64,000 bases of DNA from NCBI GenBank assembly GCA_910589185.1, contig CAJUSU010000005.1, positions 11,592 to 75,591 on the forward strand. Reading direction: 5' to 3'. Source of the stretch: an uncultured Clostridia bacterium (GTDB lineage: Bacteria; Bacillota; Clostridia; TANB77; CAG-508). This document shows positions 1 through 60,570 of this stretch, piece after piece. The notes under the pieces are model-generated. The model made no database searches, was not told the DNA's origin, and saw only the letters and a program-made list of their open reading frames with translations. Each line of letters begins with the position of its first letter. Within the stretch, counting starts at the first letter, position 1. The translations under genes were made by a program, and so were the position numbers.

Positions 1-108
1 GGTGTTGCAAAAAGATATGCAAGTGGTGAAGAAACCAATATTAGTAAAGAGACTTACAACAAATTATTAGACGGTTTAAAACTATTGCAAAAGGTTATTG
101 AGAAGTAG
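1..108 (+). CDS. 3' end of an unidentified CDS entering from the left edge
   Basis: Frame 1 is open from base 1 to TAG 106-108 (...KLLDGLKLLQKVIEK*). The fragment is too short for a family assignment. Confidence 0.3.
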   Translation, partial: GVAKRYASGEETNISKETYNKLLDGLKLLQKVIEK

Positions 109-189
109 TGTCAGTTTGGGGACGTTAGTTTAACTGACATTTTGGAAAGGAGACAGATGTCAGTTAAACTAACGTCCCCAAACTGACAC
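108..189. repeat. Nested palindromic intergenic repeat, copy A (complete, two perfect 33-nt arms)
   Basis: GTGTCAGTTTGGGGACGTTAGTTTAACTGACAT (108-140) and its exact reverse complement (157-189) flank a 16-nt loop. Each arm also self-pairs (TGTCAGTT/AACTGACA). The element starts inside the TAG stop of the upstream CDS. Confidence 0.9.
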
Positions 190-203
190 GAAAGGAACTA
201 AAA

Positions 204-1514
204 ATGAAAGTAGGATTTATTTCACTAGGGTGTAATAAAAATTTAGTGGATACAGAAAAGACAATAGCATTATTTAAAAATCATCAATATGAAATTGTAA
301 ATAGCGCAAAACAAGCAGAAATTATTGTGATTAATACCTGTGGGTTTATAGAATCAGCAAAACAAGAAGCGATTAATACGATTTTAGAAATGGCAGAGTA
401 TAAAAATCAGAATTGTAAATATTTAATTGCAATGGGGTGTTTAGTAGAAAGATACAAAGAGGAGTTAGAAAAGGAAATTCCGGAAGTAGATTTATATATT
501 AAATATAGTGAATATGATAAGTTATGGAATAAAATAGAAGAGTTAATCGAAAACGAAGGGACAGAGCGAGAGGAAAGCTTTGACGAATTAACAGATAGGG
601 TAATTACAACAGGGGAGAATTATGCTTATTTAAAGATTGCAGATGGTTGTAGTAATTATTGTACTTATTGTGCTATTCCAAAAATTCGAGGACCTTTGAA
701 AAGCAGAAAAATAGAGAGTATTATACAAGAGGCAAAGGATTTAGCACAAAAGGGTTACAAGGAGATTATTTTAACAGCGCAAGATACCACGAAATATGGA
801 ATAGATAATTATGGAAAGCCAAGATTAGCTGAATTATTAGAAGAACTTTGTAAAATTCCTGAGATTAAGTGGATACGCTTTCTATATGCTTATCCAGAAA
901 CTATTACAGAGGAATTGATTGAGACGATAAAAAAGTATCCACAAATTTGTCCATATTTTGATATTCCAATTCAACATATTTCAGATACAGTTTTGAAAAG
1001 AATGAACCGTCATAGTAATGGGAAGACTATCCGAAGCTTAATTACAAAACTAAGAAAGGAACTTCCAAATTGTATTTTGAGAACCACTGTTATGGTAGGA
1101 TTTCCTGAGGAGACAGAAGAAGAATTCCAAGAATTATATGACTTTCTAAAAGAAGCAAGATTTGACAAACTAGGAGCCTTTGCATATTCTAAAGAAGAGG
1201 GAACGCCAGCAGAAAAAATGCCAAACCAAGTTCATTCTCAAACAAAGAAAAGTAGATATCATAAAATTATGAGCCTGCAACAAGAAATTTCTGAGGAAAA
1301 TCTAAAGCAAAAAGTAGGAAAAAGCTATGAAGTAATGATAGAAGGCATGACTAAAAATGGAAAGTACTATGTAGGTAGAAGCTATATGGATACTCCTGAA
1401 ATTGATGGAGTGATTTATATTCCTAATACAAAGAGGTTACAAACTGGTGAGTTTGTAACCTGTAAGATAACAGATATTAAAGAATATGATTTGATAGGAG
1501 AAATCTTAGAGTAA
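204..1514 (+). CDS. rimO: Ribosomal protein S12 methylthiotransferase RimO (radical SAM MTTase)
   Basis: 436 aa with an MTTase N-domain (SLGCNKNLVDTE), a radical-SAM CxxxCxxC motif (GCSNYCTYC) and a C-terminal TRAM-like domain. Length and motifs fit RimO better than MiaB. Confidence 0.85.
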   Translation: MKVGFISLGCNKNLVDTEKTIALFKNHQYEIVNSAKQAEIIVINTCGFIESAKQEAINTILEMAEYKNQNCKYLIAMGCLVERYKEELEKEIPEVDLYIKYSEYDKLWNKIEELIENEGTEREESFDELTDRVITTGENYAYLKIADGCSNYCTYCAIPKIRGPLKSRKIESIIQEAKDLAQKGYKEIILTAQDTTKYGIDNYGKPRLAELLEELCKIPEIKWIRFLYAYPETITEELIETIKKYPQICPYFDIPIQHISDTVLKRMNRHSNGKTIRSLITKLRKELPNCILRTTVMVGFPEETEEEFQELYDFLKEARFDKLGAFAYSKEEGTPAEKMPNQVHSQTKKSRYHKIMSLQQEISEENLKQKVGKSYEVMIEGMTKNGKYYVGRSYMDTPEIDGVIYIPNTKRLQTGEFVTCKITDIKEYDLIGEILE

Positions 1515-59594: not shown

Positions 59595-59665
59595 TTATGA
59601 ACTCTTGACATTTACATAAAAACACAATATGATATATAAGGACTAAAGCGAAAGGAGAAAAGCCT

Positions 59666-60538
59666 ATGGATACACAAATGTTAACAACTAATAAGGGTGG
59701 GGAATTGATTAGTTTTAAAATAAATGGCGAAGAGAAAATCCATCCAGGAGAAAGCTGCATAGATGAAAATGGCAAAATTTATTGGAAAAGACATTCACCA
59801 GTGCTATTTCCTATTGTAGGGAAATTAAAGAAAAATGCTACTTTAATAGGTGGAAGAACTTATGAATTACCACAGCATGGATTTGCTAGAGATTTAGAAT
59901 TTGAGCCAATTACCAAACTAGATAATTTCCATTCTTATGTGTTAAAAAGTAATAAATATACATTGGCGAAATATCCTTACGAATTTGAATTATATAATAC
60001 TTATCGAACTGAAGGAAATAAATTAACCACTATTTATAAAGTGGTAAATACTGGGCTAATCAATTTACCTTTTGGGATAGGCGGACATCCTGCTTTTAAG
60101 ATTGACCAAGAAGAGTTAAAAAAGGGACATTACTATTTAGAATTTGAACAAGAAGAAGAAAAAATTCACTTTTTGTATTTGATAGACGGATTGATTGGTA
60201 CAGAATATGCTAAAAATCCAATGGAAAATAAAAAGATTATTCCAATTGGACCACATACATTTGACAATGATGCACTAATTATGAAAGGAATTACTTCCAA
60301 TAAAATTAGTTTAAAAAAGAGAATTACAGAAGAGACTGTTTTAACGATGGATTTTGCAGATTTTCCATATTTAGCAATTTGGTCAAAGCCAAATGCACCA
60401 TTTATCTGCATTGAACCATGGTTTTCAACAGCAGATACAATAAAAGGTTCAGGAGTGTTTACACAAAAACGAGATCTTATCTCATTAAAACCAAATGATT
60501 CGTTTGAATGTAAGTATACAGTGACGTTCAGTTGCTAG
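59666..60538 (+). CDS. Aldose 1-epimerase (galactose mutarotase-like) family protein
   Basis: 290 aa with FPIVGKL...QHGFAR...GGHPAF...EPW, a pattern typical of the family. Confidence 0.75.
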   Translation: MDTQMLTTNKGGELISFKINGEEKIHPGESCIDENGKIYWKRHSPVLFPIVGKLKKNATLIGGRTYELPQHGFARDLEFEPITKLDNFHSYVLKSNKYTLAKYPYEFELYNTYRTEGNKLTTIYKVVNTGLINLPFGIGGHPAFKIDQEELKKGHYYLEFEQEEEKIHFLYLIDGLIGTEYAKNPMENKKIIPIGPHTFDNDALIMKGITSNKISLKKRITEETVLTMDFADFPYLAIWSKPNAPFICIEPWFSTADTIKGSGVFTQKRDLISLKPNDSFECKYTVTFSC

Positions 60539-60570
60539 TGTCAGTTAAACTAACGTCCCCTAACTGACAA
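60538..60570. repeat. Palindromic repeat family, copy F (single arm)
   Basis: GTGTCAGTTAAACTAACGTCCCCTAACTGACAA. Starts inside the TAG stop of the epimerase gene and ends just before the next RBS. Confidence 0.85.

Follow-up and report, generated by a model that had tools for sequence, protein, structure and literature searches.

REP/REPIN-like hairpin elements and a probable cognate tyrosine transposase in the genome of an uncultured gut Clostridia bacterium

A stretch of 64,000 nt from an uncultured Clostridia bacterium (the window, C5:11592-75591 of the genome G000) carries six copies of a palindromic intergenic repeat, which we found to belong to a family dispersed over the whole genome and connected with a transposase gene whose 3′ end runs into one of the copies. 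The window copies are most probably, with a probability that we put at about 0.8, part of a genome-wide set of non-autonomous elements of the repetitive extragenic palindromic (REP)/REPIN-like, TIRtron type, and represent the cognate DNA of a HUH single-tyrosine transposase of the kind known as REP-associated tyrosine transposase (RAYT) or TIRYT. G000 is the window's own genome, an assembly of 1.50 Mb in 57 contigs with 30.7% G+C; contigs are written with C, and genomes and loci with G and L, the relatives all being metagenome-assembled genomes (MAGs).

The hairpin family and the associated transposase genes

Searching the window for the 22-mer GGGGACGTTAGTTTAACTGACA with up to three mismatches gave six matches (118-139+, 158-179-, 47174-47195+, 47209-47230-, 51321-51342+ and 60539-60560-), and none of 100 dinucleotide-preserving shuffles of the window had any. 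An earlier note on this DNA had described a six-copy family and proposed a genome-wide count; all six window copies exist, but the family comes to about 59 elements, and the motif is dispersed rather than confined to the window. Across G000 we counted 73 matches to the core with up to four mismatches and 83 [AG]GGGACGT sites, and delimited 59 elements (about 80 arms) on at least 30 contigs, falling into the classes X, U, A-doublet, B-doublet, C and E.

The hairpin unit measures 31 nt, with an 8-bp stem and a 15-nt loop that contains the invariant GGGGACGT. Its half-module, M (15 nt), consists of a stem half plus GGGGAC (TGTCAGTTtGGGGAC), and X (31 nt) is M followed by GTTAGTTT and the complementary stem half; the U unit (49 nt, about 20 copies) is X, TCT and an inverted M, and the A-doublet (101 nt, about 10 copies) is X, about 21 nt and an inverted U. 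B-doublets (74 nt, six copies, plus about nine single arms) have the stem TGTCCGAT/ATCGGACA, the A-type stem being TGTCAGTT, while C-type elements are marked by the loop GTTCCTTTT and E-type elements by the stem GTCGCAC/GTGCGAC. Inverted doublets with two mutually complementary arms, the form originally described, do exist, but the architecture is modular, with X, M, U and doublets in at least four stem subfamilies. The stems of these subfamilies differ by compensated changes and GGGGACGT is unchanged throughout; the classical REP tag GTAG is not present at the 5′ foot of the hairpin, and the conserved motifs are instead that of the loop (GGGGACGT) and that of the half-module (GGGGAC). Folding computations agree with the earlier proposal that each single arm folds on itself and that complete copies can also form one long hairpin. 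The 19 doublets (74-119 nt) fold at -34 to -37 kcal/mol with z about -12 and the complete window copies, taken as single strands, form hairpins of 31-32 bp with z about -12 to -13.

The same note had proposed a search for a RAYT or IS200-type TnpA, and the Pfam profile PF01797 (Y1_Tnp) gave two hits in G000, on C21 (49 bits) and C40 (33 bits), the first of which is the Y1 HUH gene that runs into an element. It is intact (C21:6677-7516) and encodes a 279-aa protein with the motifs HUH (HNHVH) and YIHFNP, and an A-doublet, inside which the gene ends, supplies its final ten codons (CQFGDVSLTD). The best NCBIfam match of the protein is NF047646, 'REP-associated tyrosine transposase' (55.1 bits), its sole sequence match in the PDB is 4ER8, the E. 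coli TnpA_REP, and 4ER8 was also the top Foldseek match of its AlphaFold model (predicted local distance difference test, pLDDT, 84), above the TnpA proteins of IS608 and ISDra2. The HUH and Tyr catalytic residues are invariant in 40 homologues, and a W-S-S-Y motif, located about 18 residues past YIHxNP, shows no or almost no variation in sets of 10 and 40 homologues. Residues 160-268 of the model form a confidently modelled helical domain, and residues 235-266, at the C-terminus, gave weak matches to the helix-turn-helix (HTH) profiles HTH_17/23/28.

No near-identical copies of the transposase gene were found in G000, where the two hits are 59% identical and the one on C40 has lost about 40 N-terminal residues by deletion and frameshift. 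The C40 copy adjoins a B-type (TGTCCG) arm; the abundant A subfamily goes with the intact gene and the B subfamily with the deleted one. Arm uniformity tracks the state of the gene, A arms being nearly uniform (n=32, mean pairwise difference 0.63, 21 identical) and B arms more diverged (n=19, mean pairwise difference 2.36). At C40:3848-7081 (L002 850-1790, minus strand), the deleted paralogue lacks a stop codon and reads on in frame through the B-type arm into the zinc-ribbon start of radA, which is apparently frameshifted after about 40 codons, either by a real change or by an assembly error.

The exact repeat was present in 8 of 24 genomes of the genus and in none of 16 genomes from other families, and all eight genomes that hold it have a transposase homologue with at least 50% identity, or at least 59% in the five high-copy genomes. 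Inverted hairpins also bracket the homologous genes of more than 30 relatives, among them members of other genera, Pelotomaculum and Sporomusa, and are arranged from the outside inward as hairpin X, a 3-4-nt linker and M followed by ACAyCTT; among the loci inspected, the inverted flanking match was absent at L014 only. The gene-proximal module holds GGGGACAC or GGGGACAG at L006, L012, L116, L117, L119 and L127, and the same sequences occur within the U units and doublets of G000. The stems are genome-specific and complementary (TGGTAATT/AATTACCA, GTCGCG/CGCGAC, TTCCCATT/AATGGGAA, GGAGACA/TGTCTCC and GGGATTT/AAATCCC), and GGGGAC is constant across relatives while these stems vary with compensation. 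Among 114 distinct contexts of GGGGACGT, with 53 different stem 7-mers, at least six of seven stem pairs were Watson-Crick in 72%, versus 18% when the partners were swapped. Across genera the stems are naturally swapped with pairing retained, and GGGGAC emerges as the motif that is probably recognised or cleaved.

Six relatives (G008, G022, G003, L015, L020 and L026) share the locus of the A-type gene (addB-like ... dnaE), and a blastn search with the 101-nt doublet found no match in plasmid and phage collections. In a survey of 151 genomes of the family, 14 were rich in the motif (at least eight copies of GGGGACGTT; controls gave 0-8 per strand), and a close homologue of the transposase was found in 9 of these 14 versus 8 of the 137 others, a comparison that is descriptive and not a test because the surveyed genomes are related.

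Placement and turnover of the elements

The position of the elements relative to genes, analyzed with heuristic calls of open reading frames (ORFs), is far from random. A stop codon lies 0-2 nt from the element boundary in 30 of 59 cases, where random intergenic placement over 2000 trials gave a mean of 1.4 and a maximum of 9, and seven further ORFs read into an element. TAG accounts for 10 of the 20 stops at zero distance, compared with 26% genome-wide. A Shine-Dalgarno (SD) core followed by a start codon lies 1-8 nt from a boundary in 30 of 59 elements (null 4.1 ± 2.0), and with the element taken out, 24 nt or less remains of 29 among the 51 occupied spacers, while spacers of up to 30 nt hold 3.7% of intergenic bases. 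The same wedging between genes is visible by eye in G175, which belongs to another genus. That the element itself carries the stop was ruled out for the 0-nt cases, in which the stop is external to the repeat and is already there in an empty site; an element-encoded stop is true only for the seven ORFs that read into elements. A fixed target word, such as TTAC of IS608, was likewise rejected, the flanks being merely A/T-rich with frequent ..AG, and the asymmetric U unit had no consistent end at the stop side. Many odd annotated gene ends can be explained because ORFs read into the repeats, which also account for contig breaks in these MAGs.

To follow the sites in sister species, we joined the flanks of all 59, of which about 38 were comparable in G008 and about 36 in G022. 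More than 80% of the comparable sites hold 31-130 nt of extra DNA and are thus occupied too, often by a different subfamily. Clean empty sites were found in G008 for C6:58828 (CTAG^AAAGGAGG), C15:7810 (GAAAG^AGGAGG) and C14:10671 (2 nt after TAA), and in G022 for C3:19300 (GTTAT^TAGGAGG). The insertion point lies 0-2 nt 5′ of the SD in three clean filled/empty comparisons, and no target-site duplication was found at the clean junctions. In two cases, an upstream ORF that formerly overlapped the SD or start of the next gene now stops at or in the element.

The earlier emphasis on stop codons is borne out statistically, but the filled/empty comparisons suggest that the downstream SD is the primary landmark; as insertion occurs directly 5′ of the SD in very compact junctions, contact with the stop seems to be largely a by-product. 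Landing at the SD is not the whole explanation, since some sites are convergent, flanked by a stop at either end, and some copies next to a stop lie in long spacers. At G000 C6:28363-28470, a pair of single B arms brackets a 46-nt terminator-like hairpin with T-runs, one arm lying directly against the stop of each of two convergent genes; these arms seem to have been placed separately at each stop and not as one doublet. A metagenome scan with the exact 22-mer gave one contig, from a relative of roughly 90% identity, with rearranged neighbours and no clean empty site, and an identity look-up of a neighbouring protein, made for strain-level polymorphism, found no record.

Proposed mechanism, alternatives and known systems

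By analogy with E. coli TnpA_REP and IS608 TnpA, the C21-type enzyme would bind the hairpin on single-stranded DNA and cleave next to the conserved GGGGAC, and in doing so could copy, move or homogenise the elements in trans. The elements build up and persist for long periods at the small number of places where a compact genome tolerates them, namely directly 5′ of a downstream SD, and hence after or just inside the end of the upstream gene, and between convergent stops.

Several observations weigh against a transposase-driven family. The NF047646 score of 55.1 bits is below the equivalog cut-off of 80, and the 5′ side of the C21 gene is not tightly bracketed, as about 700 nt, including two small ORFs, separate it from the closest element upstream. 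Mobility is inferred from presence and absence across species, with no cleavage, excision or insertion event observed. The extreme positional bias is not explained by random tolerated insertion alone, and some targeting or host-level selection seems to be needed. Strict co-occurrence of RAYT and repeat fails in four motif-rich relatives of the same family but other genera (G175, G102, G108 and G174), which carry 8-75 copies of the GGGGACGTT hairpins and in which neither the family profile nor PF01797 found a Y1/RAYT gene; G175, with 75 copies and the stem GGGATTT/AAATCCC, is 96% complete in about 20 contigs. In these four genomes, either the gene was not assembled or the repeats outlive or do not need the transposase.

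A bolder version, which we regard as unlikely though worth stating, is that a lineage-wide system both places and keeps a strong hairpin, more than merely tolerated, at the exact point between a stop and the next SD, or between convergent stops, because the transposase homes to SD-like DNA or because the host selects operon punctuation. If host-selected punctuation were true, the hairpins could stay conserved after loss of the transposase, as in G175.

The strongest rival reading, although we consider it improbable, is that the hairpins are kept chiefly by host selection as punctuation of operons in RNA or DNA (for example an intercistronic stabiliser, an exonuclease barrier or a translation uncoupler), with the link to the transposase being historical or secondary. 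It would fit the precise placement at stops and SDs, the occupation of more than 80% of comparable sites in sister species even with another subfamily, and the abundant conserved copies in genomes without a detectable transposase, and E. coli REPs near stops are reported to affect translation and mRNA stability (Liang 2015, as cited in PMC6006769). Wobble pairs also exceed A-C pairs in the mRNA sense (10:4), but this count comes from a few shared variants, with few independent ones. The arms show no preferred orientation relative to the mRNA (28:28), the bias of U units (9:3) is not significant, and the copy at 7502-7605 folds nearly equally on either strand. Moreover, the loop motif is invariant and also marks the ends of transposase genes, which fits recognition of DNA by a protein. 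Taken together, these orientation, wobble and fold results speak for an element acting at the level of DNA whose transcription is incidental. The elements are probably co-transcribed into the mRNAs of operons, and might affect expression.

It is very unlikely that the elements are instead sites bound by the HTH of the RAYT-like protein, or by some other protein that binds DNA, and that they serve chromosome organisation or regulation with no transposition. The well-folded helical C-terminal domain with its weak HTH matches, and a GGGGACGTTCC variant that is almost palindromic around ACGT, would fit such a function, but a mere binder would not need the HUH and Tyr residues that are invariant in 40 homologues, the covarying stems, free in their sequence, point to a folded single strand rather than a duplex operator, and presence/absence together with subfamily replacement indicates turnover of DNA. 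A length of 31-101 nt, inverted symmetry at the ends and a position between genes would suit miniature inverted-repeat transposable elements (MITEs) moved by a conventional DDE insertion sequence, but there is hardly any chance that the elements are these, simple terminators or attC-like sites, given the clean junctions without target-site duplications, the consistent bracketing of a Y1 transposase gene and no other, the lack of a T-run after the hairpins, and their location between housekeeping genes genome-wide rather than in a cassette array. The earlier comparison to REP/BIME- or MITE-like elements is supported on the REP side, by dispersal and by the transposase, but not supported for MITEs in the sense of cut-down DDE insertion sequences with target-site duplications.

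Read as REP/REPIN-like elements with a cognate transposase, the repeats are most similar to TIRtrons. TIRYT genes are RAYT-like and are flanked by inverted repeats sharing GGGGWSAS, with some moderately abundant families (Di Nocera et al. 2013, PMC3733652), and most TIRYTs were assigned to subclass 2.1 of TnpA_REP, a group with a C-terminal HTH and a serine motif shortly after the catalytic tyrosine, for which REP-like structures beside the genes were reported as not found (Quentin et al. 2018, PMC6006769). The system described here shares with them the Y1 HUH core with a C-terminal HTH extension, the WSSY serine motif, the flanking GGGGWSAS inverted repeats (as GGGGACAC or GGGGACAG in the gene-side half-module) and moderately abundant dispersed families of singles and dimers. 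It differs in that the flanks are clear hairpins with covarying stems and a conserved loop, unlike subclass 2.1, and that the placement at stop and SD is much tighter than described for TIRtrons, of which a term search of PMC3733652 returned no examples from Firmicutes or Clostridia.

The behaviour of the family resembles that of the REPIN-RAYT systems of Pseudomonas and Enterobacteria (Bertels & Rainey 2011, PMC3116915; PMC5581495; bioRxiv 10.1101/2021.07.10.451892), with doublets of inverted palindromes that form long hairpins, a single cognate transposase for each repeat family, encoded at a fixed locus and inherited vertically, repeats that are homogeneous with an intact gene and diverged with a broken one, and long-lived sites. 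On the other hand, there is no 5′ GTAG, the conserved motif lying in the hairpin loop and half-module, the protein has about 280 aa with an HTH instead of about 150-170 aa, the copies number about 59 instead of hundreds, and the host is a 1.5-Mb Clostridia MAG with 31% G+C. Group 1 RAYTs do occur in Clostridia, but REPINs have been linked to Groups 2 and 3 only (Bertels et al. 2017, PMC5581495).

By structure as well as by sequence, the C21 protein is closest to the E. coli TnpA_REP (4ER8), and the E. coli REP/BIME substrate likewise combines a hairpin with a conserved motif and is extragenic, often after a stop; identity over the core is 16%, however, and the E. coli REP has a long imperfect stem with a short loop where we found an 8-bp stem with a 15-nt loop. 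With the IS200/IS605 elements IS608 and ISDra2 the family has in common the HUH/Tyr fold, subterminal hairpins that would be recognised on single-stranded DNA and insertion beside a short landmark without target duplication, but here the transposase gene is not multicopy, the short elements are the repeated part, and no tnpB was seen beside the gene.

What we describe is a known kind of bacterial repeat system, of TIRYT/subclass 2.1 type with REPIN-like behaviour, in a new lineage, with a clear pairing of hairpin repeat and transposase in small-genome gut Clostridia. To our knowledge, work on REP/REPIN-RAYT systems has been almost confined to Proteobacteria. A single genome here offers paired subfamilies with an intact and a broken gene and an unusually sharp insertion landmark, which opens both the biochemistry of the transposase subclass and the possible usefulness of such repeats to the host to direct testing.

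Individual copies and neighbouring features

The first window copy (109..188) is an A-family doublet with an internal deletion, made of X(+) TGTCAGTTTGGGGACGTTAGTTTAACTGACA, an 18-nt spacer and X(-), with inverted arms of 31-32 nt. It lies between the stop TAG 106-108, which abuts it, and the SD and start of the next gene (ATG 204), and its single strand folds at -36.3 kcal/mol (z -13.5). At the orthologous site, G008 and G022 carry the complete 101-nt version, and G010 an element of another subfamily. The second copy (7502..7605), a diverged doublet whose two diverged arms have the loop GGGACGTATCT and the 5′ stem halves TGTTGG, lies between the stop TAG 7499-7501, directly adjoining, and a GTG start at 7630, and folds at -22.0 kcal/mol on the plus strand and -20.0 on the minus strand.

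The B-family doublet at 47165..47239 (TGTCCG/CGGACA subfamily, stem of the TGTCCGAT/ATCGGACA type, spacer TTTTACATAATTT) lies between convergent genes with a stop 4 nt away on either side and folds at -34.0 kcal/mol as a single strand. The orthologous site carries an A-type element in G008, an E/A hybrid in G022, a D-like one in G010 and an own type in G011, and in G020 (L113, G020:C27) we observed an unrelated long perfect palindrome, ATGTGGGCGTAGACAAATGACAA...TTGTCATTTATCTACGCCCACAT.

A U unit of 49 nt on the plus strand (51312..51360) consists of X(+), TCT and the inverted 15-nt half-module GTCCCCAAACTGACA, and abuts the minus-strand stop TTA 51361-51363 of the right-hand gene. The unit is inverted in G008, replaced by an E-type element in G022 and absent from G010 and G011. 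At this site, G010 (L102, G010:C4) and G011 (L104, G011:C3) have an insert of 560-610 nt with its own promoter-like region and a small ORF, which differs between the two species. The single 31-nt X arm at 60539..60569, whose minus strand reads GGGGACGT, is squeezed between the stop TAG 60536-60538 and the AGAAGGAG...ATG at the start of the following gene; G011 has no element at this site (TAA, 11 nt, SD), and G008, G022 and G010 have C-type elements there.

The three abutting TAG stops had been correctly placed in the earlier note, as had a fourth (32445-32447) inside an element. TAAGTG had been reported beside two further copies, and TAA 47158-47160 does end a gene 4 nt upstream of 47165, but the TAAGTG to the left of 51312 is not a gene end. 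As had been stated, no T-run follows the hairpin at any window copy, and several copies lead straight into an SD and start codon. No Rfam family fits, a search having given no match at the elements at the gathering score and generic, sub-threshold miRNA-hairpin hits only at permissive thresholds.

The copy at 32444-32470, formerly taken for a plain remnant, is in fact a head (32437..32452, plus strand, TGTTAGTTTAGGGACG, a stem half plus GGGACG) that contains the upstream ORF's stop and is joined at GGGACG to a second, different repeat (32453-32522). This second intergenic family, of about 70-75 nt (TTAAGTTAGCTGT..ACAGATAACTTATGCAATCGAGCAAAGCGAGATTGTAAAC), has at least eight copies, others being at G000 C4:76581, C41:1160, C11:40255, C30:3965, C30:6011, C9:29533 and C26:12553; it usually starts at or overlapping a stop codon (..TTAAG..) and ends just 5′ of an SD. 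In the window and in C26, where the copy sits within an E-type U unit, it is joined to a head of stem half plus GGGGACG exactly after GGGGACG, a junction that may mark the point at which the hairpin family is cut or joined. Elsewhere in the window, Rfam hits at the gathering score were a 6S RNA (2399-2591), a tRNA (36161-36233), a skipping-rope RNA (56251-56336) and a T-box leader (63109-63338).

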